A stretch of DNA of 64,000 nt from a virus (IMGVR_UViG_3300037455_000402:10951-74950), one strand, 5' to 3'. Numbered from the stretch's first letter, positions 13,749-64,000 are shown. Numbers and translations: made by a program. Notes: a model not told the origin generated them from the letters alone.

Positions 13749-13825
13749 TGGTTTCTCCGCTGCGATTCGAACGCAGGAATGGCAGTTTTAGAGACTGCTG
13801 TCTTGAGCCACTTGACGACGGAGAA
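13749..13825 (-). tRNA. amber suppressor tRNA(CUA), Gln-like
   Basis: U1-A72 acceptor TTCTCCG/CGGAGAA, D-arm TCGTCAAGTGGCTCAAGAC, anticodon stem GCAGT/ACTGC loop CTCTAAA (C34-U35-A36); CCA encoded. Confidence 0.75.
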
Positions 13826-14269: not shown

Positions 14270-14344
14270 TGGTTGCCGCGCAAGGAATCGAACCTTGGTA
14301 CGAAGGGTTAGAGCCTTCAGTCCTGCCACTTAGACGACGCGGCA
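14270..14344 (-). tRNA. amber suppressor tRNA(CUA), second, Gln-like
   Basis: U1-A72 TGCCGCG/CGCGGCA, D-arm TCGTCTAAGTGGCAGGAC, anticodon stem GAAGG/CCTTC loop CTCTAAC; CCA encoded. Confidence 0.75.
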
Positions 14345-14349
14345 ATATT

Positions 14350-14427: not shown

Positions 14428-14500
14428 ATTATTAAATATAAGGATGCCACCCTTACTGTTGGGTGTTCTACCCAGCTTTAATCACTTTCCTCTCAACTTT

Positions 14501-14538
14501 CTATAAATATTATATCATAAATTTTTATAAAAGTCAAG
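14501..14538 (-). promoter_or_regulatory. consensus promoter TTGACT-N17-TATAAT
   Basis: TTGACTTTTATAAAAATTTATGATATAAT. Confidence 0.7.
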
Positions 14539-14556
14539 TTTTTATGTGGTGGGACT

Positions 14557-15052: not shown

Positions 15053-15192
15053 ATAAAACAAGATACGTTGTTTGATTTATCGCGCGTCTGCTAATTCCGC
15101 CACTCCCCGATGATGGTCGAGGAGGTAGGATTTGCACCTACAATGTACGAGCTCCCTAAGCCTATCAGTTATAGATTGCTGCACGTATCTTA
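15053..15192 (-). ncRNA. Y-RNA-like RNA with permuted tRNA-like domain (family member f)
   Basis: 5' AUUUAAGAUACGUG-CAGCAAUCUAUA; 3' ACGUAUCU pairs with 5'; T-arm GTAGGTGCAAATCCTAC - CTCCTCG-A-CCA - UCAU - CGGGGAG - D-arm-like. Confidence 0.5.
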
Positions 15193-15318
15193 AATTGGTA
15201 CGGGTGGGTTCTATCAGCATCAAGTACTACCCGTTTAGCTTTCGCTATTTTCTTTTTCAGAAGAAAGAACTTAAAACCTGCATAGTTTCTCGTTTCTAAT
15301 TCCTAAGCTGAAACCCGT

Positions 15319-15401
15319 TGGTCGGAGATAAGGGACTCGAACCCTTACGAATTAACATATGCTCCTAAGGCATACGCGTCTACCAATTCCGCCAATCTCC
15401 G
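15319..15401 (-). tRNA. tRNA-Leu(UAG)
   Basis: Leu-type D-arm TGGCGGAATTGGTAGACGCG; anticodon stem TATGC/GCATA loop CTTAGGA; C1-G72; CCA encoded. Confidence 0.75.
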
Positions 15402-29138: not shown

Positions 29139-29456
29139 TTAACTTCGTCTCCTTCTTTTTACTCCAATAAATTCTTCTCCCCAAAGGTCTTGGGGCTCTA
29201 AGTCTCCCACGAAATATTTCTCGCCACATTGACAAGAAATTCCATGTCTTACTATAACATCTGCATCTACTTCTACTATATAGGTAAGAGGAACTTTCTT
29301 GTTTAAAATTAACTTCATTATTTCACAACCATATCTTTCTCCATGAAGCTCTGCCCACCGATTTAATTCAGCAAGGTCATCATCATCAAAATTTACATCT
29401 TCACGACTCCAAATCATATCATTACCTCTTTCTGTATTTCTCTCATATCTTTCCAC
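29139..29456 (-). CDS. hypothetical protein (105 aa)
   Basis: ORF track. Confidence 0.5.
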   Translation of the reverse strand: MERYERNTERGNDMIWSREDVNFDDDDLAELNRWAELHGERYGCEIMKLILNKKVPLTYIVEVDADVIVRHGISCQCGEKYFVGDLEPQDLWGEEFIGVKRRRRS

Positions 29457-29701
29457 TCTTCCTCGGTAAGAACACAGTTATCAAAAAACTCTGCCCAGTC
29501 TTTATAGTGTCTCGGACCAATAATTTTGCTCTCATCGAATGGCGGCAGCTCTGCCTTATCTTTCTGAGAAACGTAGCCCTCAATGATATATTTAGAAACA
29601 GTTGAAGGAGAGCAGCCGACTATCTCAGCTACTCTCTTCTTAACGCCGAGTTCGAGATATAATTCATTTATCTGAATTTTGATTTCGTCTGTTATTTTCA
29701 T
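29414..29701 (-). CDS. helix-turn-helix DNA-binding protein (putative transcriptional regulator)
   Basis: KKRVAEIVGCSPSTVSKYI helix-turn-helix segment. Confidence 0.55.
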   Translation of the reverse strand: MKITDEIKIQINELYLELGVKKRVAEIVGCSPSTVSKYIIEGYVSQKDKAELPPFDESKIIGPRHYKDWAEFFDNCVLTEEEWKDMREIQKEVMI

Positions 29702-29852
29702 CTTTACCTCCTAAATCTACAACCCTTCCGTGTAACCACTGACCTTTTGTTGCAACAGGAACTCGAATAATAGGATTGTCTTTATCTTCAGCTATGACTA
29801 TCTTATCGCCATAAATGGTTTTGAAGAAATCAATCAGCATATCCTCAATCAT
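29664..29852 (-). CDS. hypothetical protein (62 aa)
   Basis: ORF track. Confidence 0.4.
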   Translation of the reverse strand: MIEDMLIDFFKTIYGDKIVIAEDKDNPIIRVPVATKGQWLHGRVVDLGGKDENNRRNQNSDK

Positions 29853-31317: not shown

Positions 31318-31542
31318 TCAGCCATCACAATGGTCTGGAAAATTCTTTGTTTGTTTCTCTTCGAGTAAATCTGTGATAATACGAGACTGTCTTTCAATAA
31401 GACGGCTCTGACTTGCATTTTCATCTTCCGCCCAATGGAGTCGTTTCTGGAGGTCTTTGATATAAGCAAAGACCTCAGTTGGACGTGTCTGTATCATAAG
31501 TTTAAGTTCGTGGTCGCTTATTGATTTCATAATATACCTCAC
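31318..31542 (-). CDS. hypothetical protein (74 aa)
   Basis: ORF track. Confidence 0.45.
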   Translation of the reverse strand: MRYIMKSISDHELKLMIQTRPTEVFAYIKDLQKRLHWAEDENASQSRLIERQSRIITDLLEEKQTKNFPDHCDG

Positions 31543-32420
31543 TTTGCATCAACAATGATAGCACCTGAATCGCCACTAACGACGTTAGGCTGCTGACCAT
31601 TCCACTTTTCAATCTTATTGTAGTCGATAAGTTCCTGAGTAATAGACTCATTTACTTTCTTGTTGGCTTCTGCCTCAGCTTCAGCCTTTACCTTAATAGC
31701 CTCAGCCTCAGCTTCAGCCTTGGTAAGAGCTGCCTTAGCTTCACCTTCTGCACGAGCCTCTGCCTCAGCTGCATCTGCCTGTGCTGCCGCAACTCTCTGC
31801 TCGTTTTCTGTAGCCGCCTTTATCTTATTCTGCTCTGCAACAAGCTTCTGTTCAATGGCGTCGTCAAAAGCCTGAGAGAAACCGAAGTTGGTAATATTGA
31901 ACTCGTCAATAACCAAACCATAATCGGCAACCTTCTTTGAAATCTCGTCCATTATAGCAATAGATACTTCGCCACGACGCTGAATAAGCTCTTCCGCTCT
32001 GTACTGGGCCATAACGCTCTTTGTAGCTTCCTGTATTGCAGGCTGTAAGATTGTATCTTCGTAGCTAAGACCTATGTTCTTGTACATAGTTACAGAACTT
32101 TCCTTAGCAAGATGATAGTTTATTGCCAGAGTTGAATTGACAGACTGAAGGTCCTTAGATGTAGAAGCTGCATCTACCTCAACCTTCTGAACCTTATTGT
32201 TTACATCAACAACGGTCTCAACAAATGGAACCTTTAAATGGAAGCCCGGTTCATAAGTCCCTTCCTGTACAGAACCCATAAATACTCTTACGCCAGTACA
32301 ACCCGTATCAACTTTTGTACAAGAGCTGCAACCACTTATAAGAAGTGCAAGAGCAAGCACGCCTGTGGCAACTGATGAACCGATTTTAATTTCTCCGTCC
32401 TTATTTACAAAAAATCCCAT
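31539..32420 (-). CDS. SPFH/band-7 (prohibitin/HflC-like) domain lipoprotein
   Basis: lipobox LLISGCSSC; central ...QPAIQEATKSVMAQYRAEELI... band-7 region; Ala/Glu coiled-coil tail. Confidence 0.55.
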   Translation of the reverse strand: MGFFVNKDGEIKIGSSVATGVLALALLISGCSSCTKVDTGCTGVRVFMGSVQEGTYEPGFHLKVPFVETVVDVNNKVQKVEVDAASTSKDLQSVNSTLAINYHLAKESSVTMYKNIGLSYEDTILQPAIQEATKSVMAQYRAEELIQRRGEVSIAIMDEISKKVADYGLVIDEFNITNFGFSQAFDDAIEQKLVAEQNKIKAATENEQRVAAAQADAAEAEARAEGEAKAALTKAEAEAEAIKVKAEAEAEANKKVNESITQELIDYNKIEKWNGQQPNVVSGDSGAIIVDAK

Positions 32421-38802: not shown

Positions 38803-40281
38803 TCACTTCCAGCAGAACTGTGGACGTGTAAGTATCTGTGTCATAGCCTCAACAGAGTCCATTGTAATAAGAGTTGTAAGCTCCTTAAATGTTGCTGCTG
38901 AGCTACCAGAAACATATGCGATGCCAGGGTTGCCACACTTACTAATGAAACGATTACCACGAGAGCATACGTTCCACATAATAAGCTTAGGAGCAACAAG
39001 ACCAGCCTTAGCATAAGCCTTCTGCCACTTCTCAACGATAGTATCAACGTTGCCGCGTGAAGCGAAAGCGTCAATCTCACCGTCTGAGATTATAACAAGT
39101 GCCTCAGGTGCCTCGCCTGCCTTTATAGCAGTACGATAAATAGCATCGAAAGCGCCGTCGAGGTTAGTGTTGTAACCTACGTGCTTCATTACCTCGTTTA
39201 CACGAGAAGCAACGGTATCAGTTGGGTTAAGCTCATAAAGAGAAGGTCTGTCAGTGAATGTAAGGAAGAGGTTCTTGTAAGGACCTGAGTTACGCTCAGC
39301 AAAGTAAATACCAAGAGATACAGAAGTAGCAATTGGCTTATTACCCTCGCAGTACATAGAACCAGATACGTCTGACATTACAATGACATTGTGCTCACCC
39401 TCGACATAGTCAGGAAGAGCCTTCCACTGAGCCTCAAGAACCTTATCAACCTCAAGGTTGTAACGTGAATACCAACCTGAAGTCTGGTTAATGTAAGGCA
39501 TAATAAGGTCATATGGGTAAGATACACTTGCGTTAATCTTAGCCTCGCCCTTAGTAACAGCGTTAATGAACTTGTCAAAACGCTCATAGTCGTGACGACC
39601 GAAAGCAGAACGGTATCTTGTCATAGCGACAGATGGAACTGCCTGATAGTCGATAGCACCGAACTGGTTAGAAGACATCTTCTTCTCAACGACATCAAGG
39701 TACTTACGAAGAGCTGCGAGAGTCTTACGATATGTACGCTCGGTTATGCCGAAGTAAGTGTAGACCTTACGAGCAAGTCTACGAGTCTCCTTAGAGCTGG
39801 TGTTTGGAGAAGGAAGCCACTTAGCAAGAAGAGATATGCTCTCGTTCTTGGTCATGTCCTTAATATCCTTAGTAAACTGAGCCTTCATAAACTCAAGAGC
39901 CTCTGTCTCGACAGAAGTTCCCTCAAGGACGAACAAGTCGTCCCAACGACCTGCAGATACGATAGTATCAAGATTGCGAGCAACCTTTGCAGGGTCCTTA
40001 AGTGCAAGAGTCTTCAAAAGAGTTCTTGCAATTCTACGCTCACCGATACCACCCTCACGGATGTTACGAGCATAAAGTATCATATTGTCAGCAAGCTCCT
40101 TGTCAGAGTTGCGGGCATCAAGATACATACGGTTAAGCTCAGCCTCAGTAGCCTTACGCATACCACCAATTCTTGCAAAAAGGTTTAATACAGGGTTACC
40201 AGTAGTAGAGCAAACCTTAGCACCGTTCTCGGTGTAAGCTACATTTGTCTGATTTCTGAATGAGTTTGCGAAATTACTCAT
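38803..40281 (-). CDS. Ro60 ortholog (TROVE domain + C-terminal vWA; Rsr-like)
   Basis: 492 aa; N-terminal TROVE-like region (…NPVLNLFARIGGMR…); C-terminal vWA MIDAS VIVMSDVSGSM and ...PKLIMWNV... pattern comparable to Ro60 LLAVDVSASM...LIVCGMT. Confidence 0.6.
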   Translation of the reverse strand: MSNFANSFRNQTNVAYTENGAKVCSTTGNPVLNLFARIGGMRKATEAELNRMYLDARNSDKELADNMILYARNIREGGIGERRIARTLLKTLALKDPAKVARNLDTIVSAGRWDDLFVLEGTSVETEALEFMKAQFTKDIKDMTKNESISLLAKWLPSPNTSSKETRRLARKVYTYFGITERTYRKTLAALRKYLDVVEKKMSSNQFGAIDYQAVPSVAMTRYRSAFGRHDYERFDKFINAVTKGEAKINASVSYPYDLIMPYINQTSGWYSRYNLEVDKVLEAQWKALPDYVEGEHNVIVMSDVSGSMYCEGNKPIATSVSLGIYFAERNSGPYKNLFLTFTDRPSLYELNPTDTVASRVNEVMKHVGYNTNLDGAFDAIYRTAIKAGEAPEALVIISDGEIDAFASRGNVDTIVEKWQKAYAKAGLVAPKLIMWNVCSRGNRFISKCGNPGIAYVSGSSAATFKELTTLITMDSVEAMTQILTRPQFCWK

Positions 40282-40446: not shown

Positions 40447-40532
40447 TGGTCGGGGTAGCGGGACTCGAACCCGCAAGCCACAAGGGCACCTGATTTTGAG
40501 TCAGGCGTGTTTACCAATTTCACCACACCCCG
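40447..40532 (-). tRNA. tRNA-Leu(CAA)
   Basis: type II; D-arm TGGTGAAATTGGTAAACAC; anticodon stem CCTGA/TCAGG loop CTCAAAA; C1-G72; CCA encoded. Confidence 0.75.
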
Positions 40533-40761
40533 ATAATGGGCGAACCCCACAAGTTGCCCACTACTCTTTGCAAAGAAATTAAATGGTCTACCGTGGTACG
40601 CTTATCTGGCTACTCGACGTTGCTGCGCTACAATCTCTCTTTGGCTCTGACATAGGCGCGATAGGCACTGTTCCAATTCACAAGACGCATAAATTTTAAG
40701 ACAATTTTTCACCAAATCAAAAATTTTCTTTTAAATTTATAATTGCTGGGTGCGTCTTTAA

Positions 40762-40836
40762 TGGTGTGGGATAGGAGAATCGAACTCCCATCTCCTGCTT
40801 GGAAGGCAGGCATCATGACCATTAGACCAATCCCAC
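40762..40836 (-). tRNA. tRNA-Gly(UCC)
   Basis: anticodon stem CCTGC/GCAGG loop CTTCCAA; acceptor GTGGGAT/ATCCCAC; CCA encoded. Confidence 0.75.
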
Positions 40837-41714: not shown

Positions 41715-42626
41715 TTAATGAGCTGCCATATCAGCTTCATGAAGAAGCTCATAAACTGCTCTCATTTCGCCGCCGTAAAGACGCTCAAACTCATCAATGA
41801 AATTGTCTCTGAAATAATACTCCATATGCCACTGAATAAGGACAATAAGTGCTGCATAAAAGTCGTACTGCTTAGAAGCAAACTGACCAACACAACAAGC
41901 TACCATATAGGCTCCCACTTCGTGGTGATTATAGAAATGTGAATGGTCATCTTCCTTGCCGTTATACTTCATACGGGACTTAACGACAGGCTTACCAATA
42001 TCGTGGAATAATGCGGCAGTACGTGCAAGATGCTTAAGGTTCTTATCCAAACCCTTCTCTGCCGCGTGGTCAGAAGCGTACTTACTTGCCTCTAACATAT
42101 GATGAAATATATCAAGCTGATGATGAGGATTATCGTGGTCTACACCACAAGCATCAAAAAGATACTCACCGAGCGTCTTCTTGTTCTTAGGATTTGGAAT
42201 CATACGGATAGAGTCCCAGCCCTCATCAAGACGAGGAAGAGACATTTCTCTATACATACGCCAGATAACCTCTTCAGGAACGTGACGCATACGATTAGCG
42301 TTCTGCTCTAAGATAACGTCGATTTCCGTAGCTGCTACTACAGCAATCTTCTTAACGTCCTTAGGAAGTTCCTTTAAAAAATTCTTTCTACGCTTACGAG
42401 ATAAGTTCGTTGCGTCATAAACACAAGACTGTCCATTTGCAAGGTAGTTCTTTATACGCTTATGAAGCTCGTTGAATACCTCGCCGTTATGAGACTGGTC
42501 GTCCTCAGAACCGAATAACTCTGCTCGGATAGCATCTGAGGAGACAATAGGACAGCCAAGGTCACGAGCAATGAATGACTTACCAGAGCCAGCTACGCCG
42601 ACCATCATATAAAATACAGCACTCAT
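41715..42626 (-). CDS. P-loop NTPase/kinase fused to HD-domain phosphohydrolase (candidate polynucleotide kinase-phosphatase or dNTP hydrolase)
   Basis: N-terminal MMVGVAGSGKSF Walker A; C-terminal HD motifs (LFHDIGK, HHEVGAY, H..D). Confidence 0.55.
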   Translation of the reverse strand: MSAVFYMMVGVAGSGKSFIARDLGCPIVSSDAIRAELFGSEDDQSHNGEVFNELHKRIKNYLANGQSCVYDATNLSRKRRKNFLKELPKDVKKIAVVAATEIDVILEQNANRMRHVPEEVIWRMYREMSLPRLDEGWDSIRMIPNPKNKKTLGEYLFDACGVDHDNPHHQLDIFHHMLEASKYASDHAAEKGLDKNLKHLARTAALFHDIGKPVVKSRMKYNGKEDDHSHFYNHHEVGAYMVACCVGQFASKQYDFYAALIVLIQWHMEYYFRDNFIDEFERLYGGEMRAVYELLHEADMAAH

Positions 42627-42696: not shown

Positions 42697-43848
42697 TTAT
42701 TTAAAAGATTTTATTGTTGACTCATTATCAGAAGTGTAAAGGTTAATCTTTCCTTCCGCCGCCGTAAGTATCTCTGTTCCTGCAAACTCATTAGTATGAG
42801 TTACCACAAGAGAAGGCTTAGCTTTAATACCCTTCATTTCAAAATACTTAGAGTCACGAATAGCTCTTGCTACTGCGGCGTTAGCTTCTCTTTGGTCAAA
42901 TTTACCATAACGAAGAGTTCCCTGATTAGGGTTAGGCACATTCGTAGCATCAAACATATCGGCATTGATTGCCGCCTTATCGCACTCAAGGTTAGAAGTC
43001 TGTCCTATCTGTCCCTTGCCGTGACGAGTAAGGTATGTACGAGTTACATAGAGGGTTTCAATATCTACTTCCCCCTTGTCAAAGTTCTGGGCGATTATCT
43101 GAGAAGGCACTTTCGCGCCGACATAGGCAGGAGTATTATGCTCGAAGTCATAATTGTGGTCATCCGCAAGAAGAAGTCCCTGACCATTCTCAAAGACGAG
43201 AAGAGGATAAGAATGGAGAAGCGCCTTCTCTTCTGTATCATTCTTAATCAAGGTAATATGGTCATAAAACCACTGGAAGTCCTCGTCAATATTTGGTTCG
43301 AGATATTCTCCGTGAAGAAAGTTAGTAACATCTTCAGGAAGTGTACCGTCCTTATCTCTAAGGACATCCTCATAATACTTGATTATAGTATCAAGATGAT
43401 AATGAGGTGTACCTGCCATTTCAGTACAAACCCTATGACGATTTAATGACTCCCAAACGCCGCATCCCGTAGATGAATGAGACTTATCGCCGCGGCGCTC
43501 TTCTACGTTTACATTTGCAAACATATCAACGGGAGATACCATAACGCCGCCTATTTTTGCATAGACCTTGGGCGTAATTCCCATAGCTTCAAGTTCTTCC
43601 CACTCACGTCTGAACATAGCGGGATTTACCATAAACTCTTCGGAAAAGTAAGTAGCGGCACCTTTGAGAGTACCGCTACCAAAGTGGCGGAAAACTCTCC
43701 TTACGCCGTTTTCTACTACCGTATGCGCCCTCTGACAAGAGTTTGAGGGCAGGATATTGAGACAGGTTGGTGTAGATACCGCATTGGCAACGAGTCCTTT
43801 CGACTCGTCACCATAGTTAAGTCCAGTTACGATTTTAATTTCCGCCAT
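42697..43848 (-). CDS. adenylosuccinate synthetase homolog (PurA/PurZ family)
   Basis: GLNYGDESKG (PurA GDEGKGK P-loop), AHTVV (GHT), STGCG (TTGRGIGP), YVTRTYLTRHGKG; 383 aa. Confidence 0.55.
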   Translation of the reverse strand: MAEIKIVTGLNYGDESKGLVANAVSTPTCLNILPSNSCQRAHTVVENGVRRVFRHFGSGTLKGAATYFSEEFMVNPAMFRREWEELEAMGITPKVYAKIGGVMVSPVDMFANVNVEERRGDKSHSSTGCGVWESLNRHRVCTEMAGTPHYHLDTIIKYYEDVLRDKDGTLPEDVTNFLHGEYLEPNIDEDFQWFYDHITLIKNDTEEKALLHSYPLLVFENGQGLLLADDHNYDFEHNTPAYVGAKVPSQIIAQNFDKGEVDIETLYVTRTYLTRHGKGQIGQTSNLECDKAAINADMFDATNVPNPNQGTLRYGKFDQREANAAVARAIRDSKYFEMKGIKAKPSLVVTHTNEFAGTEILTAAEGKINLYTSDNESTIKSFK

Positions 43849-46044: not shown

Positions 46045-46950
46045 TTACTTAATGAGACCTCTTGCAAGCTTCATTGAAAGTGAGCCACAAATCTTACCGA
46101 AGTTCTCAATCTGAGCTACAGTCTCGGGCTCCTCCTTTACACAGTCATTGTAAATTGCTCTTGGAAGATTCTTAGCGATTGTACCAAGGTCCTTCTCGTC
46201 CCAGTTCTCTGGAACAATGCCGTCCTCAACGAACTTCTGAATTGCCTTCTCAACTCTTCTTGGAGTTACGATAGTCTCTGCAAGAGCCTCTGCAGCCTGT
46301 CTTGCTGCAATCTTTGCAGGGTCAATGTCCTTCTGAGGCTTTGACTGATGAACCTCAGAGAACTCCTTTGCAACAATCTTTACATATGCAGGAGTACCGC
46401 TGAACTTATTGTCAAGTCTGTCCTGAGACTTAATAACTACACCCTCACCTGTAGGCTCACCGCCCATCTCTGTCTTACCAACAAAAGAGTAAACGTGCTC
46501 CCAAGAGATGAAAGGACCGTCGTAAAATACAGGAACCATCTTAAGACCGCAGAACTCTGCCATCTGCTTGGTCTGCTCCCATGGAATGTACTGCTCAATC
46601 TCAGTATCCCATACGTCGAAAACATAGAACTGCTTCATCTTCTCCTGTGGGTACTTAATAGTGTGCTTAACGAGCCACTCACCGAAGAAAATGTATCTTG
46701 TACCAAGTACACAAGAAATCATAGTAGGGTCAAGTGACTGAACATACTCGTAGAAACCCTGAAGGTTGCTCTCAGGAGTAAGCTCATTTCTTCTTGAAAA
46801 AGCAATAAGCTTACCGTCCTCGCCAACTGCGATTGATGCGTTTGCACCGTCTATCTTCTCTGTAATTGTAATATGCTCTCCCACCTTGAAAGCCTCAGCG
46901 AACTTGTCCTTGAGTCTCTCAATATCAACATACTTTTTCATTAACATCAT
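46045..46950 (-). CDS. RNA ligase, T4 Rnl2-like (nick-sealing family)
   Basis: motif I EKIDGANASI (T4 Rnl2 EKIHGTNFSL), FGEW, YVFDVWDTE, EGVVIK, KIVAKEF align with Rnl2 motifs. Confidence 0.65.
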   Translation of the reverse strand: MMLMKKYVDIERLKDKFAEAFKVGEHITITEKIDGANASIAVGEDGKLIAFSRRNELTPESNLQGFYEYVQSLDPTMISCVLGTRYIFFGEWLVKHTIKYPQEKMKQFYVFDVWDTEIEQYIPWEQTKQMAEFCGLKMVPVFYDGPFISWEHVYSFVGKTEMGGEPTGEGVVIKSQDRLDNKFSGTPAYVKIVAKEFSEVHQSKPQKDIDPAKIAARQAAEALAETIVTPRRVEKAIQKFVEDGIVPENWDEKDLGTIAKNLPRAIYNDCVKEEPETVAQIENFGKICGSLSMKLARGLIK

Positions 46951-50524: not shown

Positions 50525-51250
50525 TTAGTGTTCGTCTGTACCAGGAATAGCAGCGTTAGGTGTAGGTGTATCACCAGAAACCTCGTCATAGAGAGCGGCT
50601 GTTACAAGCTCAATCTCCTTACGTACTCTTGCAAGCTCAGACTGTAAGAAGTCTACAGGGTTCTTAAGAGCAACACGAGTATTAGTATCATCTACAGTGT
50701 AATCTGCAGGGTCAAGTGCCTCAATTGGGTCTCCACAAATAAGATTTGCATACATTCCCTTAGCTGGGTCACCTGCGAAGTCAGTAATCATTTCAGTACC
50801 AAACTGATAACTGTTATTACCAACTGTAAGGATAGCTGGCTTATTCTTCTGCTCGAAGTCCTTAATCATCTGTACAAGTACCTTAGTCTTCTGAGTGAGT
50901 TTAGCGAGTCTCTTAGAGCACTCATCAACCTTCTCAGGCTTTGGTGGTACTGGATAAGGAGGACATGGAGGAGGACATGGAGGGATTGGATGCGGATGTG
51001 GAGGAGGAGGACATGGAGGAATTGGTCCAGGTCCAGGTCTACCAGGAATTGGAGGAGTTGGTACGGGTTCTACATCCCACTCTGGATAAGGTGGGTAGAA
51101 TGGGTAGCCACCCCAATCAATTGGTGGAGGAGGAGGACATGGAGGTACAGGTGGTACTGGCTTTGGTGGTGGTGGAAGAATAGGCTTGCTTGGTACAGCG
51201 TAGTCTACTCCGTCGAAACCAGTTCTCTTGTAAGTACTCATATAATTCAC
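50525..51250 (-). CDS. proline-rich protein (241 aa; PPxP/CPPPP repeats) with globular C-terminal domain
   Basis: ...PPPPKPVPPVPPCPPPPPIDWGGYPFYPPYPEW...PPCPPPPHPHPIPPCPPPCPPYPVPP... Confidence 0.55.
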   Translation of the reverse strand: MNYMSTYKRTGFDGVDYAVPSKPILPPPPKPVPPVPPCPPPPPIDWGGYPFYPPYPEWDVEPVPTPPIPGRPGPGPIPPCPPPPHPHPIPPCPPPCPPYPVPPKPEKVDECSKRLAKLTQKTKVLVQMIKDFEQKNKPAILTVGNNSYQFGTEMITDFAGDPAKGMYANLICGDPIEALDPADYTVDDTNTRVALKNPVDFLQSELARVRKEIELVTAALYDEVSGDTPTPNAAIPGTDEH

Positions 51251-52897: not shown

Positions 52898-53257
52898 TTA
52901 AATTCTAAAAGAGTAAACCTCATCTGACTTTGCTGCAATTAGTTGTGTATCTATTGGTGAAATAAATTCATCGACTACCGCCATATCCCAGCGGTCTCCA
53001 CGAGGCATATGGTCTGAGACAATTAAAACTTTAATTATATTACGTTTCTCTTTATCAATCAATTTAACTGTTGTAGAAGAAATAGTACAATCATAGCTTT
53101 TATTCATAGACAAAACTCTGTGGTCTTTTACCATAAAGGCAAGTATCCTATCCCTTGCCCATGTAAAATGTTTCTCATTAGCAACAGCAATACAAGCGGT
53201 AAAATTGTCTTCTGTTAAAAATCTATGAAGTAAAAAATTAATTTCTATATCGTTCAT
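52898..53257 (-). CDS. hypothetical protein (119 aa)
   Basis: ORF track; ATG overlaps TAA of upstream GIY-YIG gene. Confidence 0.5.
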   Translation of the reverse strand: MNDIEINFLLHRFLTEDNFTACIAVANEKHFTWARDRILAFMVKDHRVLSMNKSYDCTISSTTVKLIDKEKRNIIKVLIVSDHMPRGDRWDMAVVDEFISPIDTQLIAAKSDEVYSFRI

Positions 53258-54270
53258 TATGAATTACCTGCCGTACTATTGTATCCCCATGTATTTGCAT
53301 GGTAGAATGAAATGTACTCCTTTTCCTTTCCATTTAATTCGTCAGTATCACATTCAGCAAGAACTTCAAAAGTGAAATTCTCTGCACCCTCTTCCCACAT
53401 TGCATTATAAAGCTTATTAGAAGTACCTGGCTCTGCTTTTACACCACGCTTTAAGTGAGTACGCCAACGTTCCTTAAAAGCCTATTTTGTTTGTCCGATA
53501 TAAACTTTGCCGTTTTCGAGATTGGTGATTTTATAGATACCAGTATTGCCACGTCCAGTAACAACTCGTCCTACCATTTCATTGAATGGACGCTCATAAT
53601 AGTTCTTATAAATTAATTTGTAAAGAACAGAAGGGTCGTGAAGTTCGTCGGCAATTTTGCGAAGCTTCTTAACATCTTCAATATCATTTTCAGAAAGAAC
53701 AATACGATAGAAATTTTTATCTTCTTTAATCTTTTCTGCTCTTTTATATTCCTCAATGATTTCTTGCTATTTAGCTTCAGCAGCCTTGACTTCTTTTTCA
53801 AGTTGAGCCTTTTTAGCTTTCATTTCAACAGAGAAATTCTAAAATTCTTCTGATATGTTAATCTTCTACTGGTCATAATAATCCATTACAGATTGAAGTT
53901 GTAGAGCCCCTTCTTTTGATTTGTTCTGTACCTCAGTAGCAAGTTCTGCCGCCAAAGCTTGGAGCTAATCGTCTCTTCGCTTACGAGCTGCCGCAAGGTC
54001 CATATCTAAATTCTTTATAGATTCTTCAATGGAACGACGCTTTCTCGCTGCTTCTTCTATAGCATTACCGAGTTCAAGTTTAATAGCTAATTCTTCTTCA
54101 CTAATTCTTTTCTTACGCTTAGCTTCGAGAGCCTTAAGAGCTTCCTATTTGGCTGTTTCAAAATCTTTAACTGCCTTTTCAGAAACAGATATCTGCTGGT
54201 GAACGGCTAAACAATAGCCGCCCCAGCCCGCAAAAAGACAACAGATTATAGCAATAAAAATATATCCCAC
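53257..54270 (-). CDS. GIY-YIG nuclease-domain protein (N-terminal TM helix + coiled coil), six in-frame TAG codons
   Basis: single frame from GTG (GAGGTGG RBS) to TAA; C-terminal GIYKITNLENGKVYIGQTK-TAG-AFKERWRTHL...KLYNAMWEEG...NFTFEVL GIY-YIG signature lies downstream of the TAGs. Confidence 0.6.
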
Positions 54271-54281
54271 TATAATCCACC

Positions 54282-54860
54282 TCAGTTTATAAGAAGTTCC
54301 TTTGCCATTGGAAGTGTTTCAATCCAAGCGCAGAACTCTCTCCATTCAGGAAGCCTATGGTTTTTACGCTGTTTATAGATATTTCTAAGACAACGATAGT
54401 TAGTTGTCATTCGAGCAGTAATTCTAAAGCCGCATGGATTGCTGTAGAGAACTCTTAAATAGTTCTCAGGCGTAGGATTTTCAAGATACTCTGCTACAAG
54501 TTCTTTCATTATTACAATCATACGAGGGTCTACATATTCGATATATGCGTCATCAAGTTCAAACTTGGTAATACGATGCATTGTAGACTATGATGATACA
54601 AATTCGAGAAAACGATAACGTTCTGCTTCAACCCAAGCCTTATTGGTAAAAGTTAAGTCAAAGTTGACACGAATACCAGTTAAGAACTATCCGTGTGCCT
54701 AATTATCATTATCAACCGCCTTGATTAAATTCTCTATACGCTTTAAATCTTTGTCGCTTAATATCCTATTATAATCCTACAGTTCAGTTCTCATAGGATA
54801 ACCAGATGCAATTATAGAATTGGTAAGGTCATATACTTCTGCATTATTTACTATACTCAT
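54282..54860 (-). CDS. hypothetical protein with four in-frame TAG codons
   Basis: ATG 54860 overlaps TGA of upstream gene; frame MSIVNNAEVYDLTNSIIASGYPMRTEL-TAG-DYNRILSDKDLKRIENLIKAVDNDN-TAG-AHG-TAG-FLTGIRVNF...FVSS-TAG-STMHRITKFELDD... runs uninterrupted to TGA at 54282. Confidence 0.5.
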
Positions 54861-56803: not shown

Positions 56804-57667
56804 TTAGATAGTACGGAAATAGTTTCTTTGACCATCACCGGACCATTGATTGCAAGTCCAGCCTGCAAATGCTTGTGGGTTATTAAAGTAATAATCCACC
56901 GCGTCAGACATTGCCGAATAATGAACTGAGCCGCCGCAGTAGTATTCTGCATATTTATTGAATCCCCAAGGTGCGCAAGTCTGGTCCAGTACGCCCTCGA
57001 CTGTGCCAGGCCAACGTGAGTCATTCACCATATTCATTACAGATGCTACTATCTTAGCTCTCTCATATGTATCTGCCATGCCGCCATACTCACTTGCGAC
57101 AATCTTGCAAAGCAATGTATAATCGTACTCGCTAACTGAAGGAGTAACATTGCTTATTGGTTCTACATATTCATTAATAACTTTTAAATCGGGTTTACAT
57201 TCGCTACAAATTCTACACTCAATATTCTCTGTATTCTCAATCTCAATAACTTCGCCCTGCTTTGCCCAGTGACAAGTAGAGCGGTGTATATAGTGTGTGT
57301 TTGGTTTAAACACAACAAATTCTCTTTCAGGTTCTGCCGTCTCTGGAGCCGCAACAGTAGTCTCGGCATCTGCTACTGTAGTCGAAACCTCTTCTGTTAC
57401 CACTGTTGTAGTAGTAGAAGAAAGTGTAGTTGATGTGCTTGTGGTTGTAGAAGTTGTGGATGTGCTTGTGGATGTTGAAGTAGTACCTGTTGTTACTGTG
57501 GTAGAAGTTTCTAATGTAGTAACTACTGCCGCCTTAACAGGAAAATCTACTCCGTGTGCTGTCCCACCGTCCGTATGTACAGTATGCGGTGTGGCAAAAC
57601 AAATTACGACAGCAGATGCGAATACTGCTGCCGCAATCTTAATTGATGTTTTAAGCTTCTTATTCAT
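56804..57667 (-). CDS. secreted cell-wall hydrolase, SleB/hydrolase_2-like C-terminal domain, Ser/Thr-rich linker
   Basis: signal peptide MNKKLKTSIKIAAAVFASAVVICFA; linker TTSTSTSTSTTSTTT; C-terminal ...LLCKIVASEYGGMADTYERAKIVASVMNMVNDSRWPGTVEGVLDQ...APWGF. Confidence 0.55.
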   Translation of the reverse strand: MNKKLKTSIKIAAAVFASAVVICFATPHTVHTDGGTAHGVDFPVKAAVVTTLETSTTVTTGTTSTSTSTSTTSTTTSTSTTLSSTTTTVVTEEVSTTVADAETTVAAPETAEPEREFVVFKPNTHYIHRSTCHWAKQGEVIEIENTENIECRICSECKPDLKVINEYVEPISNVTPSVSEYDYTLLCKIVASEYGGMADTYERAKIVASVMNMVNDSRWPGTVEGVLDQTCAPWGFNKYAEYYCGGSVHYSAMSDAVDYYFNNPQAFAGWTCNQWSGDGQRNYFRTI

Positions 57668-57764
57668 TAAAATTCCTCCTTTTCGTCCTTATGGACTATG
57701 AGGGGAACACGCATTTGTGTAGCGAAAACGCTACAATTATATGTAGAAATTACTAAGGAAAAGT

Positions 57765-58274
57765 CTAAAATTTATCATCTTCATTAAGATAGATATAATG
57801 AATAATAATTAAATCGTTCTTAATGATAGCCATAAATCCAGACACTCCCAAATAATTCTCATCAAATAAATGAACAATACAAGTTGTATTGTAAGATAAA
57901 GAATAATGATAACGTATAAGACCTTCAATTTGAAATTTCCAGTCTAAAGTCAATTTGCCTTTGGTTTTGTCAAAATATTCGCTTAATAGAAGCACAGCGT
58001 CTTCAAAAAGAATACCATAATTACTTAATTCAAAAATCTTGCCGCGACTTAATATGGGAACATCAGAGCTTGTAATTGCATTTTTGCCCCTTAAATTCTC
58101 TCTATGCCGAGGACTTATTGAACTAATGTAATCAAAACATCTATCAAGGACTTTCTCCATATCTGATTTAGATAAAGAGAAATAGTCATTTATCATTTTA
58201 TTAAATACTTTGACAAGTTTTTCAGGCATTGCTACTTTCTTATTATCATCTTCATAAATAGTAACGAGGCCCAT
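57765..58274 (-). CDS. hypothetical protein (169 aa)
   Basis: ORF track; AGGGGTGATAAGATG RBS. Confidence 0.5.
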   Translation of the reverse strand: MGLVTIYEDDNKKVAMPEKLVKVFNKMINDYFSLSKSDMEKVLDRCFDYISSISPRHRENLRGKNAITSSDVPILSRGKIFELSNYGILFEDAVLLLSEYFDKTKGKLTLDWKFQIEGLIRYHYSLSYNTTCIVHLFDENYLGVSGFMAIIKNDLIIIHYIYLNEDDKF

Positions 58275-58285: not shown

Positions 58286-59383
58286 TTAGAAGGTAATTAC
58301 TTTCTTACTTGACTTACTGAAAACATTACCAGCCTTGGTATTATTGCTATTTGATTTGCCGCGATGAGTCTTAATAGTTGGACACCAGTATAAAGAATCC
58401 TTTGAACGGGTGGCGGCAACATAACAAATTCGTCTCTCTTCCTGACTAAATGTCTTTGCGCCAACGACAACTACATAAGGAAATTCAAGTCCCTTAGCAG
58501 AATGAATTGTCATTATTTTAACCTTATTTTCTTCGAGCAAATGCCCCATCTGTTCAAGGTCAAGGTCTCCACGTTTAACAATTACATTCGGAACTCCGAT
58601 TTTATTTAAATACCTTTCAGCTTCTTCAATTTCAGAATTGGCTCTACAAAGTACGGCCCAACCTGTCCAATCTTTTGTCCAAGTCATCTCTTCTGCCGCA
58701 TCAGCAAAAGAACAATTCTTATCTAAGAATCCCTGCTTTGTAAGTGTTGGTATTGCACAAGGTGAAATCTTAGGCATTGAATTTAAATAGTCATCGGCAT
58801 AACGAATAATGTTTGGTGGGTTACGATAGTTTTCTACAAGAAAATACTTTTTAAATGTAGGGTCTTCTGCAACTTCTCTGATAAATTTATCAGAAGCGCC
58901 GCGGAAGGAGTAGATAAACTGTCTTTCATCACCAACATAGAAACGATTTTCCGCTGGTATGCGAAGTATAAAATTGTATTGTAAAGGGTCTGTATCTTGG
59001 AACTCATCTACAAATAAGTAAGCAACCTTTGGATAAATTGAAGGCGGAACTGTTACAGCCTTTGATATAATTTTATCAAACTGCTCTTCCGCAATATCTC
59101 CATAAGTAGGAATGTTTGCAAGATTACAAATTTTATTTGCATAAGAGTGAATTGTTCCGATGAACATTCCTTCACATTTTTCACCAAGTCTCTTTCTCAT
59201 TTCCTCCGCCGCCTGATTGGTGAAAGTAAAAGCGACAATAGAAGAGGGCTCAACGCCCTCATCTAATAGTCTATTAACTCTTGCAATTAAGGTAGCAGTT
59301 TTACCACCAGCCGCACACGCAAGACAGAGGATATTTTTTTCTTTTGAATTTATAATGTTCTACTGTCGAATGTTGTATTCCAT
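58286..59383 (-). CDS. UvrD/Rep-family helicase-like protein (compact, ~365 aa) with in-frame TAG at codon 8
   Basis: GGAGGACTGCGTATG RBS; MEYNIRQ-TAG-NIINSKEKNILCLACAAGGKTATL (Walker A) ... VDEFQDTDPLQ (motif II) ... TIHSAKGLEF (V) ... VAATRSK (VI). Confidence 0.6.
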
Positions 59384-59407
59384 ACGCAGTCCTCCTTTTC
59401 TTTCGAA

Positions 59408-59445
59408 CTACATATATTATATCATAAAATTTTGAAAAAGTCAAT
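59408..59445 (-). promoter_or_regulatory. consensus promoter TTGACT-N17-TATAAT
   Basis: TTGACTTTTTCAAAATTTTATGATATAAT. Confidence 0.7.
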
Positions 59446-59447
59446 AA

Positions 59448-62400
59448 TTAAACGATATATTTACAAGTATCACTCGTAGGCCAATATAATGGTGTTGAAC
59501 CATGGAAATGTGCAGCGTGCTAATTTTCACAGTTAGCTATTTTGCTCATAATATTATCTGGTGATTCAGAATAAGTGTGTGTCTAATCATTATATACAAC
59601 TGGCTATTGGAAACCAGTACAGCTATGAAGATAGGCAATATTTGCCCTGTTATTAAATGTATCTACCGCAGCTGTACTATCTGTTTGTACAATTTTACCA
59701 TGCACGCTGGTATCTTGTCTATAGCCATTTGTCATATCAATACTAATACGAGCATCAGAAACCTAAGAAGATGTTGAGTTAAATATTTCACCAGTACAAT
59801 TATCATGATTAAATCTATTTACATCAAAATACTTAATATTGCCTATGAATTTAGCAATAAAGGTTGCAGTATAACGAGACATACCATCCGGTTGAGAAGC
59901 GCCTCCATTAATATCAATACGGTAACAAGAGTTTCCACTCTTATCATTTATAACGTAAAACTGTCTCCAACGACCACCATCAGTGACATAGTATAAAGTT
60001 GGGCTATCTCCATAATTGTAGAAATAACCTTCATATCTTCCTATCGGTGCGCACATTACAATTTTACCGAGTACAGTATCTCCAACTTTAACTTCGGGGT
60101 CTCCATCTGCTGTTTCGCCAGGGGATAACTATCCTGCCTATGGAGATATAGAACTCATGTTAATATTGTTATAAGCATTTATATATCCAGACAAATCATT
60201 CTTATCATCAGAGGCATCTAATCCAGTTAAACTTTTAACTGACGGAATATAGAAATACATTGCATGAACTAATGAGCTATCCCAATAAACGTCGCCCCAA
60301 CCTGTAGAACCTTCATTTGTTCTTCCGCCGCCTTGCCAAGGAGTCAAACCAACTGTTGTAACAAAAAAGGCTGGGTTCTTGGAAATATCCTTATTTGTGC
60401 CATAATAAGCTTTAATGAAATTCTTTACTGCTACAAGTCCATCATAGTTCAATGTTGCAGTAGTAGGATATTTACAAGATTTTTCTACTGGAGGCTAACT
60501 GTAACAAATATTATTGCCTAATCCACTTGGGCAATTATCTTTTTCACTACCATCGTAAGCTTTATTATAGGTATCCCATCTGAAACGATAATATCTGGTG
60601 TTTGTATTTGCAGAGTTATATACTCTTGTTTTAGTAACATTGCCTCTCATTGAAGTAAATTTATAAGTTGAACCAGCTTTTACAGAAGACATTGTAAAAG
60701 CAGTATCGCCGCCGTTATCTGTTGGTAAATAGTTTCCTATCTTTAATACATAAGCGTTATCAGTAAATAGGTTTTCAGAAGATGTTTCTTCTGCAGTTTT
60801 CTTCTTCCATGAAACTGTTTCACCCATATAGTATCCCTATCTATTTATGCCATAGTCACAAACATGAATTCCCTAATCATAAACAAGAGGTACATCTAAA
60901 TCAGTGGTAAAGCCAAAAGTGCTTGTTCTCTATGTCTAATTATTGTAAGTATAATAACCGAGAGGAGTAGTTGGCTGTCCAGCCATACCACTATCATCAA
61001 CAAGTTTTCTTGCGGCATCTTCAATAATAAAATAATTACCTTGAGAACTTCCAGTTGAAATTGTTATTTTTCCTTCATCGTCACGACTAAATGAATTAAA
61101 GAAAGGAGTAATTCTTAAATTACCATAACAAGTTTTCTTTTTTCCATCGGGACTTACTACAACCTAAGCTTTATCAAAAGGTCTTAGCCACATTATTCTT
61201 CCATTATAGTCCTGATTTGTACCATAAATAAAAGGAGAAAATCTCTTCTGTCCATTTTTTATGTGTTCATTACGTAATGAAATAACAAAAGCATATTCGT
61301 CTTCGCCATTTCTCTCGCAGACTTCTTTAAATTCCCAAGTCTGAGTTTTCTGATAATAAATAAAGAAGCCGGGGTAATAAACGCTACCATAATAATTATG
61401 TTTGTAATTATCAAAACGTAAATAAGGCATTACAACTAAATCCTATTCAGAATACTAATCACAAAGATAACTTAAACGCTTTTCAACGGTTTCTATAAAA
61501 TCATTTTTACTACCAACAAAAGTAACGGTATAGAAACCAGAAGCATCTACAGACCAATGAATTAATTCATCCCATTTATCAAACTTGTCATAATGACGAC
61601 AGTTCTCACTTTCACGTGGCGGCAAAGGAATATGAACAAAACGAATGTCACTCTTTGCTGTTTGATTTATTACGGCAATTTCAGTCCAAAGATAAAGAAC
61701 ATTCTCCCATAACTCTGAGACTTCTCTTGTTAATCCCTAAAGAGTCTTAGGAATTGGACCGTCAGTTCCAAATAGATAATTGCTAATAGCAGAAATAACT
61801 TGTGCGATTACCCAAAAGTTACGGTCTAAATCTTCTATCTCTACTCTGCGGCCGTACTGCGGCATTAAAAGCCTTAACCATTTTTCAATTAAGTCTTCTC
61901 CCTCTGCCTAATCATAAGCTTCACGGGTATATTGCATTGCAGTATCATTCTTTAATATCTCTAAAACTTCGTCTTTCTTTCTTACTTCATCATAGTTTTT
62001 ATCATCAATATTCCACCAAGGGTGAACCCATTCTTCTTCATTAGCTCTTTCTCCAATAGGGAAATTATATCCAGCATCAGAATTTTTAAGGTCAGCTATT
62101 GTAATACTATGTTCCTTAGTATCAAGAGGTAAAAGAATATTATCATTATTATTATCAAAATTATCAATTATATATTGAATAAGTTTCTAAACTGATTCAT
62201 TCCAATATTCATCTTCGCCGCCTTCTATTAAATCAACAATTCCGTCATATAATTTACTAACGAAAATTGGGTCGGTAGAACTACCATGGTCACGATGTAC
62301 GCAATCACAATTCTTTTCAATATAGTCCATTAAAGAATCCTAAGTCATTCCAGTTAAGGGAGAAGGCTCGCCATGGAGTGTGGCGAGCATATTCTTCCAA

Positions 62401-64000
62401 AAATCCTTCTATGTCTCAGGTGTTAAACCAATGGTCTATATTAACACACTTATATCAATAATTGTTTTTAAAGGTGTTAACCAGTTTTCCATTTAATCAC
62501 CTCATCTTGTATATCCATTATAAGGATATGCGTCATAATCAGGATATGTTGCTATTATCATATTATTATTAGGTCCTGCAGGATTGGTATTTGGAGTATA
62601 ATAGTTAATTCCAAGAATCTAATTCTTTTCTCCCTACTGCTAAACACTATAGCCTTTTTGAACCTAACAATAAGGAAAGTCTGTAAGATTAATGTCTAAT
62701 GTTCCCTCTGGAGTTGAACGAACTAAATCGCCACTTGTAGTAGGGTCATCTTTTTCTATCTTATAGCTATATAAACGTGGAATAGTATTGCTTCCACTCT
62801 TCTATAAATAAGCATAGTCAAAAAATGTTCTCATTATTAATTGTTTAGGATTTCTTCCACTATGCCAAATTGTTGACCCAGGGAATCTTTTATCTTTATC
62901 TCTCCAAGAGTGATAAAAGGCATCGGGATGACTTATTAAATCTGAATGGTCTCCTTCGATATTAGCCATAGTGATAATTTTTAAATACCAATCATCAACT
63001 TCCTAAACTAAACCTAAACCATGTTTAGTATAAAGTTCAAATCTATATGCTGAGGCGCCATTAGCTTCTGAATTTTCTGCCCATGCGCCAGGAACATTAT
63101 ATTCACTATATGTCCACATTGCTCCATTATTTGCGCCAGTACCAAATACATAAGGAGTATTACTTCCAGGCATATAAATAACCAATCCTAAATCAATACC
63201 TTGAGAACCTCTAATACCCTAATGAGGAACTAAAGTTGAATTTTCAACAGTATAATAAGTATATGTTCCGTGTGTTGGGTTATCTGTTCCTGCGTAGTAA
63301 TAATGACTTATCATTACGTAGAATTTAGATATATCTCGTTTTCCTTTTGCAACTATTTCTTCCTCAAAATATTTCTAAAGGACTTCATTTGCAGTTGCAA
63401 TTCTCGCTGCCTGATTAGTCTCTGCGGTCGCGCGGTCGCCATCTTGATATGGGAACATTTCAACACATTCAACTTCAATATGATGATTAAGTACAGCATC
63501 ATCATAAGTGCTAAGTAATTCTCCCTGATAATATCCTTTACTAATATTAATACTTCTTATACCCGGGTCTGCAGGAAACGGTACTGAATTTATTTCAGTT
63601 ACATAATCTACATAATCTTGACCTGAATAATTAATGTACTAAAAAGTAGAATAAATAAGAGTAGGTGTTCGTCCAATTAATCCCGCGCCTATATCGTGAA
63701 ATTCTATTTTTACTGTAATATAATGAGTATCATCAACTTCTCCAGCTATTTGAATATTATCTCTAAGAAGTCCATAGAATCTTGTTTCATCAGTAGTCTA
63801 TTCACTATCAGCATTAGATAAGAATGTTACGTATTTATATACATCTTCCTACTCCTATATTCCTACAATATAGTCTTTATAATCATTAACAGAGATTATT
63901 AATGGCTAAGTCATTTCCTCATCTTTATATAAAGGATGTATATCCCATGCTGCATTTTCTTTATTTCTGTCGTAAATCCAAACGCCTGGAAGCCATACAG
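59448..64000 (-). CDS. very large structural (tail-fibre/receptor-binding-like) protein, many in-frame TAG codons, continues beyond window
   Basis: ORF-track pieces 59763-60056, 60138-60452, 60495-60827, 61164-61430, 63003-63185 are all in one frame; checked junctions contain only TAG; Gly/Asn/Tyr/Thr-rich beta-type composition; TAA at 59448. Confidence 0.5.

Follow-up and report, generated by a model that had tools for sequence, protein, structure and literature searches.

Two neighboring TAG-rich genes share one reading frame at the end of a 64-kb phage sequence

Is a stretch of phage DNA in which one frame is crowded with TAG codons a gene, and if so, what does TAG encode in it? This question is raised by positions 59448 to 64000 of a viral sequence of 64,000 nucleotides (IMGVR_UViG_3300037455_000402:10951-74950; this whole sequence is referred to as the window), which the initial annotation described as a single late, tail-fiber-like gene of more than 4.5 kb that is translatable only with suppression of TAG. 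The region consists of two neighboring genes, here named A and B, and not of one. The overall explanation that we find best, and that we regard as likely, is that these two genes are paralogs at the 3' end of a TAG-rich operon with a low G+C content at third codon positions (GC3), in a large, tRNA-rich phage that uses genetic code 15, in which TAG is read as Gln. The genome of this phage is probably larger than 160 kb.

Two genes in one frame and the meaning of TAG

On the minus strand, one frame covering 59448-63998 contains 33 TAG, 2 TAA, and 1 TGA codons, and the remaining five frames of this interval contain 73 to 210 stops each. When the region was shuffled 2000 times and stops were counted in the frame, the means were 32 TAG codons and 89 TAA plus TGA codons, with a minimum of 54 for the latter; a chance origin of the stop-depleted frame is excluded. 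TAG thus occurs about as often as chance predicts, whereas TAA and TGA have been removed, which is the pattern expected when TAG alone among the three stops is read as sense. The initial annotation, which named no strand, had reported one shared frame with many TAG codons across the region, and this is what we observe; the five junctions that it listed are all TAG on the minus strand (59585-83, 59606-04, 59522-20, 60131-29, and 60140-38). At places that it had not examined, the frame also has the 2 TAA codons and the TGA, which are located at a gene boundary or terminus and not inside a gene. With the standard code, the longest open reading frame (ORF) within 59300-64000 is 110 amino acids (aa).

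The boundary between the genes is at 62493..62504 on the minus strand, where the frame reads AGA TGA GGT GAT TAA ATG GAA AAC. The TGA (62504-62502) that ends gene A is followed by GGT, GAT, and a TAA (62495-62493), and then by the gene B start codon, the ATG at 62492. The Shine-Dalgarno (SD) sequence of gene B, GAGGTGA at 62503-62497, overlaps this junction. Genes A and B are 9 nt apart and are probably cotranscribed, and because they happen to share a frame, they read as a single gene. Gene B (59448..62492, minus strand) encodes 1014 aa, runs from the ATG at 62492 to the TAA at 59450-59448, and has 20 TAG codons (1.97 per 100 codons); it comes last in a trio of paralogs. Gene A, the middle member, is represented in the window by its 3' part (62502..64000, minus strand), which comprises the last 498 of 976 codons and has 13 in-frame TAG codons. 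Gene A extends past the right end of the window, and its full length of 976 aa, with 22 TAG codons, is present at 7061-9991 of L001, a 115-kb contig that is 95% identical to the window and that was used, together with L002, as a close relative. A giant tail fiber encoded by one uninterrupted gene of more than 4.5 kb would agree with the location of the whole region in a single frame, but it is contradicted by the in-frame TGA and TAA with an SD sequence and an ATG directly after them, by the homologs of gene B, which are ~1000 aa long and begin at the gene B methionine with MENWL, and by related contigs, in which genes of 976 and 1014 aa are called separately, as they are in L001, and the layout of the trio is kept. 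The window is also without a tRNA that would read TGA or TAA. We consider the single-gene interpretation highly improbable.

Neither the gene A fragment nor gene B has an internal TAA or TGA codon. Gene B is 99% identical to P0001, which also has 1014 aa and an identical MENWL start, and has ~50 full-length homologs of 913 to 1022 aa, in which sequence conservation is unbroken across the TAG positions. Compared with L001, gene B has 91 synonymous and 14 nonsynonymous codon differences (14/8/92 by codon position), and the gene A fragment has 51 synonymous and 11 nonsynonymous differences (8/4/53 by codon position). These comparisons indicate that the in-frame TAGs of A and B are sense codons in genes under purifying selection. 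It could be argued instead that the TAGs are true stops and that the region holds either a pseudogene in decay or several small ORFs of the standard code, since calling with the standard code yields only fragments of no more than 110 aa. This is set against the lack of internal TAA and TGA codons where 89 are expected, the large excess of synonymous differences, which are concentrated at third codon positions, the full-length homologs with conservation that continues through the TAG positions, and the presence of tRNA genes with a CUA anticodon in the phage itself, and we give it almost no credence.

All seven codon differences that involve TAG between the window and L001 or L002 (in A, B, and the helicase gene next to them) are exchanges with glutamine codons, 4 to CAG and 3 to CAA, and each of the 3 TAG/CAA exchanges requires two substitutions. 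In an alignment of 13 paralogs and orthologs with DNA available, 97 columns contain TAG. In these columns, the strongest enrichment opposite TAG (2.4x) is that of Gln from CAA or CAG codons; K, E, and R come next. The two near-invariant Gln columns of the conserved core have a mixture of CAA, CAG, and TAG, with TAG in 5/13 and 4/13 of the sequences. Furthermore, among the 66 minus-strand genes of at least 100 aa in the window, 46 end with TAA, 20 end with TGA, and none ends with TAG. Based on codon exchanges, conserved columns, and stop usage, we conclude that TAG encodes Gln, as in genetic code 15, and that in A and B it is interchangeable with CAA and CAG.

The window supplies two tRNA genes with the anticodon CUA, both on the minus strand (14270..14344 and 13749..13825), which bears out the initial proposal that the region is translatable only with TAG as a sense codon. 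Both tRNAs have U1:A72, a classical tRNA-Gln feature, together with A73, and this combination is common to them and the three tRNA-Gln genes of the window and is not found in the Glu, Lys, Tyr, Trp, Leu, or Ser tRNAs. In the first tRNA-CUA, acceptor bases 1 to 5 (UGCCG) are also the same as those of tRNA-Gln(CUG) at 9328-9401. The two copies have diverged and are 67% identical. As derivatives resembling tRNA-Gln, these two genes (13.7-14.3 kb) would decode TAG in A and B: transcribed from a host-type promoter and presumably charged with Gln by the host system, their products would outcompete release factor 1 (RF1). The first TAG is at codon 19 in gene B and at about codon 42 in gene A, and without the suppressor tRNAs, host RF1 would be expected to cut the two products there. 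Assignment of TAG to another amino acid (pyrrolysine, Tyr, Trp, Leu, Glu, or Lys) might appear to be favored by the ARAGORN label "Pyl" for the CUA tRNAs, a label that reflects the anticodon only, and by the frequency of K and E opposite TAG in homologs. Against this, the recent exchanges are 7/7 with CAG or CAA, three of them needing two base changes, near-invariant Gln columns are occupied by TAG, the acceptor ends of the CUA tRNAs match those of the phage tRNA-Gln genes, and Pfam scans of 20 window proteins, which were not exhaustive, detected no pyl-type gene. Another amino acid at TAG is therefore very unlikely.

One further gene has TAG codons only near its end. The 174-aa gene at 57750-58274 (minus strand) has TAG as codons 170 and 174, just ahead of its TAA, and both are probably sense codons as well, judging from sequence alignment. 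Use of the standard code would cost the product only 5 residues, so the gene would work in either code. We considered and rejected the possibility that this gene ends at TAG in an "early mode," since its TAGs align inside the C-terminal tail of its homologs.

The paralog family and its possible role

In L001, the gene upstream of A (554 aa) is a third paralog. A and B are 37% identical over a 225-residue core (E = 1e-45), and gene A is 30% identical over ~500 aa to the middle paralogs of the related loci L003 and L005 (E = 1e-52 and 5e-41). In all five related loci (L001, L003, L004, L005, and L006), the trio is located directly after an endolysin gene and a gene for a small membrane protein of ~105 aa. 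The endolysin is of the GH25 type in four loci and of the Amidase_2 type in L005, and the small membrane protein matches phrog_18218 and has a weak holin match. A profile built from 35 homologs matches 463 clusters among 1.84 billion representatives, and most of these clusters match only profile positions ~30-550, which means that the N-terminal half is the signature of the family and that the C termini vary. Some members have GDPD, Cna_B, or M23-like C termini, the C-terminal half of gene B (476-1012) and its counterpart in the first paralog of L003 share 41% identity, the third paralog of L004 has an insertion of ~430 aa, and close relatives (neighboring GT2 genes 98% identical) bear trio members of differing sizes. 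The genes thus have the modular construction of tail fibers and receptor-binding proteins (RBPs), with a conserved N-terminal region and exchangeable C-terminal modules.

The initial annotation had called the product rich in Gly, Asn, Tyr, and Thr and beta-strand-like. The composition is indeed rich in D, T, G, N, S, and Y, and a beta-rich structure is predicted for residues 281-1014 of gene B. In the AlphaFold2 (AF2) model of gene B (predicted local distance difference test score [pLDDT], 76.6), this part is confidently predicted, and the N-terminal 280 residues are helical, with two long helices, and poorly predicted. Searches for tail-fiber likeness with profile hidden Markov models and with structures produced no sequence or fold match. 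Scans of A, B, and their paralogs against Pfam, PHROGs, and NCBIfam found no match, the profile of 35 homologs had no hit at an E value of ≤1 among all PDB sequences, blastn and tblastn searches of 50,697 deposited phage records found none, and fold searches that included BFVD detected no similarity to known fiber, spike, or RBP structures. Genes for a baseplate, sheath, or tube were not seen. In L005 and L006, the TAG-rich, low-GC3 block that holds the trio also encodes collagen-like proteins that match PHROG tail-fiber families (E = 6e-29 and 3e-40, largely driven by repeats), from genes located upstream of the trio by 2.5 kb in L005 and by ~12 kb in L006. The TAG-rich block of the relatives also holds genes for BspA-type leucine-rich repeat (LRR) proteins, GT2, and GH113.

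Based on this architecture and neighborhood, the designation "tail-fiber-like" is plausible but unproven. We put the chance that A and B are virion-associated proteins for recognition of the host surface, of the tail-fiber or receptor-binding type, at somewhat better than even. In such proteins, a conserved N-terminal anchor of ~350-550 aa, probably oligomerizing through the long helices, would bear exchangeable beta-rich C-terminal modules. A and B might instead belong to another late class tied to the lysis cassette, either acting on the envelope or secreted, or modifying the surface outside the virion together with the GT2, GH113, and LRR gene products. This would account for the constant position of the trio directly after the endolysin and holin-like genes, for the glycosyltransferase, GH113, and BspA-like LRR neighbors, for the GDPD or M23-like enzymatic domains of certain family members, and for the failure to match a known fiber fold. 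It is harder to reconcile with conserved N termini combined with shuffled C termini, tandem paralogy, and size variation among nearly identical phages, all of which are typical of receptor-binding loci, or with the collagen-like fiber genes in the same module. In addition, gene B has no evident N-terminal signal peptide or transmembrane segment when the sequence is read by eye rather than with a prediction tool. We regard a lysis-linked or surface-modifying role as the less likely one.

The TAG-rich block and its promoter-marked edge

All real genes of the window are on the minus strand, and small ORFs with 5' TAGs or with tRNA overlap are artifacts of crude ORF calling. Genes of at least 100 aa fall into classes that differ in TAG content and in codon usage. 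The TAG-free class (51 genes, 9,502 codons) has 0 TAG versus 240 CAA/CAG codons, with CAG preferred (205 CAG versus 35 CAA; CAG, 85%), a GC3 of 0.378, and a preference for AAG. In the five genes with at least 4 TAGs, TAG makes up 46/86 (53%) of Gln-type codons, and in A and B taken together it makes up 33/59 (56%). Four of these five genes have a GC3 of 0.19 to 0.29: A, B, the GIY-YIG gene at 53257-54003, and a 192-aa gene at 54282-54860. The fifth (29414-29812) has a GC3 of 0.47 and all of its TAGs in codons 5 to 34, which probably precede the true start codon. In the TAG-rich set, CAA is more frequent than CAG, and every twofold-degenerate amino acid is shifted to codons ending in A or T. 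As an example, the gene at 31539-32420 has 0 CAA and 15 CAG codons, and gene B has 10 CAA, 7 CAG, and 20 TAG codons.

The initial annotation had TAG density rising gradually toward the right end, but what is seen is a step at about 53-59 kb. The left-end genes that it called early and mostly TAG-free are TAG-free, but "early" was a guess, as all genes run from right to left. Relatives L003 to L006 have a partition of the same kind, with 8 to 20 TAGs in each of the large paralogs. The helicase gene has no TAG in L001, L003, and L004. The endolysin gene has 0 TAG and mostly CAG in L003 to L006 and 1 TAG in L001, and the holin-like gene has 0 or 1 TAG in the five relatives.

An isolated TAG-rich islet is present in surroundings that are otherwise TAG-free. 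It consists of the GIY-YIG gene (53257-54003, minus strand), which encodes a SegE-like homing endonuclease and has 5 TAGs, and of the adjacent 192-aa gene (54282-54860), which has 4. In L003 and L004, a ThyX (Thy1) gene is directly upstream of the homing endonuclease.

The edge of the TAG-rich block is marked by a promoter. An extended -10 promoter with the near-consensus form TTGACT-N17-TG-n-TATAAT is located at 59416..59444 on the minus strand and begins 4 nt after the TAA of gene B; it is followed by a ribosome-binding site (RBS; AAGGAGG at 59397-59391) and by the start codon (ATG at 59383) of a UvrD-type helicase gene (58286..59383, minus strand; 365 aa). This start is supported by the promoter, the RBS, and the gene call in the relative. 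Counted from it, the helicase gene has exactly one TAG, as the initial annotation had noted, at codon 8 (59362-59360), where L001 has CAG. With a threshold of at least 11/12 matches to the sigma-70 consensus, there are 24 such promoters on the minus strand between 5464 and 59444, of which this one is the rightmost, compared with 2 in shuffles and 2 on the plus strand. A common extended consensus, aAAatCTTGACTTTT...TaTGaTATAATat.TATAgAAaa, is present in 22/24. The promoters are usually 20 to 45 nt upstream of an ORF start or are upstream of tRNA clusters; further near-consensus sigma-70-type examples on the minus strand are at 56658-56630, 50474-50446, 47004-46976, 42690-42662, 30444-30416, 14537-14509, and 7392-7364, and the copy at 14509..14537 precedes a cluster of tRNA-Lys, tRNA-CUA, tRNA-Ser, tRNA-CUA, and transfer-messenger RNA (tmRNA). 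No promoter of this type is found in 59448-64000, and L001 lacks the full form over a further 10 kb upstream. Promoter density differs ~10-fold between the TAG-free and TAG-rich parts. A promoter directly after the stop codon of the gene B ortholog is also present in L001, L003, and L004. The promoter set resembles the early-promoter families of phages such as the T5- or SPO1-like ones, and the recurrent placement after gene B provides independent but circumstantial support for the view that the region is at the edge of a different expression class.

An Rfam scan of 50-64 kb found no RNA family. Conserved GC-rich hairpins with T-runs, resembling terminators, are present in the relatives (L001 3700-3760 and 5027-5078; L003 310-375 and 1625-1680; L004 540-600 and 1865-1920), right before the RBS of the 55-aa/GH25 genes and before that of the gene after GH25, which is the holin-like gene in L001 and L004 and GT2 in L003. 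Because the hairpins abut the RBS and leave no space for a promoter, they suggest control by read-through or antitermination, or elements for RNA processing or stabilization, acting on the lysis and trio genes.

Why A and B should have so many TAGs can be answered in two ways that are not mutually exclusive. We favor a combination of constraint and tolerance over the view that each TAG is a selected timer. Selection would keep TAG out of genes that are needed before suppression is set up, and elsewhere AT-biased mutation (CAG to TAG is one transition) and weak selection on codons would let TAG build up, until the two tRNA-CUA genes make it the commonest Gln codon of later-expressed genes. The alternative is an adaptive, graded timing gate, in which more TAGs mean later or tighter translation and delay structural and lytic functions, as the initial annotation supposed and as the published model of Borges et al. 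(bioRxiv 10.1101/2021.08.26.457843) has it. In keeping with such a gate, TAG-free and TAG-rich genes are sharply separated, the suppressor tRNAs are encoded where promoters are dense and TAG is absent, A and B both have their first TAG near the start, and the homing endonuclease is TAG-rich, as was reported in Agate phages. Yet one TAG is sufficient for a gate and gene B has 20, TAG sites turn over like synonymous sites (7 changed and 35 kept at 95% DNA identity), and the shift to A/T-ending codons for every amino acid tested in TAG-rich genes points to mutation pressure and weak codon selection. Moreover, the pattern is a step and not a gradient, and the endolysin and holin-like genes, which are the costliest if mistimed, are essentially TAG-free. 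A graded gate appears to be the less likely of the two explanations. For the wider idea that recoding is confined to late, structural, or lysis genes, the TAG-free tRNA and RNA-repair region and the TAG-rich fiber-type module speak in favor, and the TAG-free endolysin and holin-like genes and the promoter copies before TAG-rich genes in L005 and L006 speak against.

Taken together, these observations lead to a broader proposal, which we hold only tentatively and at less than even chances. A and B may represent an undescribed family of virion host-recognition proteins with ~460 clusters (50% identity) and no detectable similarity to viral structures, whether solved or predicted. The family would always be encoded as a trio directly after endolysin and holin-like genes in an abundant lineage of large, tRNA-rich code 15 phages, in which the lytic enzyme would be kept in the standard code, most of the TAGs would be in the host-recognition module, and a conserved strong promoter would lie within 4 nt of the edge of the recoded block. 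Several points weigh against the account as a whole. In the AF2 model, confidence is lowest in the very segment of gene B that is best conserved (residues 174-280). Charging of tRNA-CUA with Gln is something we infer from the tRNA sequence. Full promoter copies precede TAG-rich genes in L005 (the copy at 19231, ahead of genes of 85 aa and 997 aa, the latter with 15 TAGs) and in L006 (the copy at 5567, before a 775-aa gene with 13 TAGs), and on these counterexamples we rejected "early promoter means TAG-free" as a strict rule. Finally, with 0 TAG in the endolysin gene of 4/5 relatives (1 in L001) and 0 or 1 in the holin-like gene, lysis does not appear to be gated here, unlike in the crAss-like case.

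The wider genome and comparison with known systems

The host is probably Gram-positive. This is suggested by the extended -10 promoters and strong AGGAGG sites, by the GH25, CW_7, and Amidase_2 domains together with the GDPD and Cna_B modules, and by a DUF2828 protein whose nearest cultured relatives are from Listeria phages (37% identity). The window carries 44 tRNA genes for most of the amino acids, at 2774-19238 and 40447-40836, and a tmRNA gene (13302-13652) with the tag ANDFAFAA. All of them are on the minus strand, with small ORFs and promoters between them. Loci for RNA repair or maturation, also on the minus strand (17996-18760, 21388-22512, 38803-40281, 41715-42626, and 46045-46950), encode a Thg1-like tRNA-His guanylyltransferase, two RNA ligases (one of the T4 Rnl1 type and one of PF09414), an AAA_33+HD protein resembling polynucleotide kinase/phosphatase, and the DUF2828/DUF7788 protein, which is named "RNA-binding protein" in some Listeria phage records. 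This set is probably a counterdefense against tRNA-cleaving host nucleases.

Other minus-strand genes of the window include a divergent adenylosuccinate synthetase-like gene at 42697-43848 (383 aa; Pfam E = 6e-13), for which a PurZ-type role in making 2-aminoadenine DNA was considered and the sole matches among PDB sequences are entries named adenylosuccinate synthetase (best E = 3e-8). The TAG-free gene at 56804-57667 (287 aa) has no Pfam match, and in its product a hydrophobic N-terminal segment is connected to a C-terminal domain by a long linker rich in Thr and Ser; the gene at this position in L003 and L004 has a CW_7 cell-wall-binding domain, and the product may be a second cell-wall-acting protein. 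The 238-aa product of 50525-51241 is extremely proline-rich in its first ~100 residues (PPPPKPVPPVPPCPPPPP...) and has no Pfam match. Just outside the window, the GT2 gene at L001 1521-2495 has more than 5,000 database clusters (90% identity) at E ≤ 1e-80 and ~65-77% identity, which indicates that the phage lineage, or the GT2 gene, is extremely widespread in metagenomes.

The reading in code 15 has practical consequences. Annotation with the standard code reduces this 4.5-kb stretch and the 25- to 30-kb module around it to debris, whereas the code 15 reading brings out two long, conserved genes and an unannotated family of considerable size that is probably relevant to host range. The locus leaves the known principle of recoding unchanged, but it complicates the published idea that recoding gates lysis, since the endolysin gene is TAG-free and the putative host-recognition genes encode more than half of their Gln residues by TAG. 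Codon-usage class tracks TAG use, and with a boundary that is sharp and marked by a promoter, this lineage lends itself to tests of the timing hypothesis. If A and B do represent a new host-recognition family, they would provide a clean natural system for distinguishing recoding that times expression from accumulation of TAG where it is tolerated.

Code 15 recoding of late and structural genes in gut phages is documented, together with the timing-gate hypothesis, for crAss-like, Lak, Garnet, Amethyst, Sapphire, Agate, and Topaz clades (Borges et al., bioRxiv 10.1101/2021.08.26.457843), and it has been confirmed by proteomics (Peters et al., PMC9523058). The present phage resembles these in its concentration of TAG in some modules among many standard-code genes, in the dispersal of recoded modules over a large genome, in its own tRNA-CUA genes and the alignment of TAG with Gln, and in the strong recoding of a (here putative) tail-type protein beside the lysis cassette and of a homing endonuclease; a recoded intron endonuclease was also reported (Borges et al., bioRxiv 10.1101/2021.08.26.457843). 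In crAss-like phages, the amidase and spanin genes are preferentially recoded (Borges et al., bioRxiv 10.1101/2021.08.26.457843), whereas here the endolysin and holin-like genes are essentially TAG-free. The main carriers of TAG are also different from those of described code 15 phages, being an unannotated trio of paralogs, and no capsid, terminase, or other hallmark structural gene is present within the 64-kb window. Promoters are not mentioned in the preprint of Borges et al. (bioRxiv 10.1101/2021.08.26.457843), and in this lineage the block is bordered by a conserved promoter. Another point of comparison is phAss-1 (proposed Phassvirus), a group of phages from the human gut that are 136 kb in size and have three suppressor tRNA genes and TAG in 41 ORFs (PMC10607447). 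Both are large gut phages with partial TAG recoding of characteristic phage ORFs and with several suppressor tRNA genes, and the window differs in having 44 tRNAs and a tmRNA. The tblastn search with gene B had no match in the 50,697 deposited phage records; if the two GenBank genomes of the phAss-1 group are among these records, they lack a gene B homolog.

The CUA tRNAs invite comparison with the suppressors of bacteria, and the trio invites comparison with modular host-recognition loci. The supE-type tRNA-Gln(CUA) of E. coli has a tRNA-Gln body with a CUA anticodon and inserts Gln at UAG in competition with RF1. The tRNA-CUA genes described here differ from it in being phage encoded, in being present as two copies that are only 67% identical, and in having A73 instead of G73, and their charging with Gln is predicted. 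In modular RBP loci, such as those for the distal fibers of T-even phages and for the baseplate RBPs with GDPD of Herelleviridae, a conserved N-terminal anchor carries exchangeable C-terminal modules. The trio is like these loci in its tandem paralogs, conserved N-terminal half, and shuffled beta-rich C termini, with an occasional GDPD, M23, or Cna_B domain, and in its position beside lysis genes and, in L005 and L006, in a block with collagen-like genes that match fiber families. It differs from the T-even and Herelleviridae RBPs in that no sequence or fold homology is detectable. The principle of recoding was already known, and the A/B locus is a further case of it among code 15 phages. What is particular to this locus is that the trio family is the main carrier of TAG, that the lytic enzyme is unrecoded, that TAG is coupled to the GC3 class, and that a promoter stands at the boundary.

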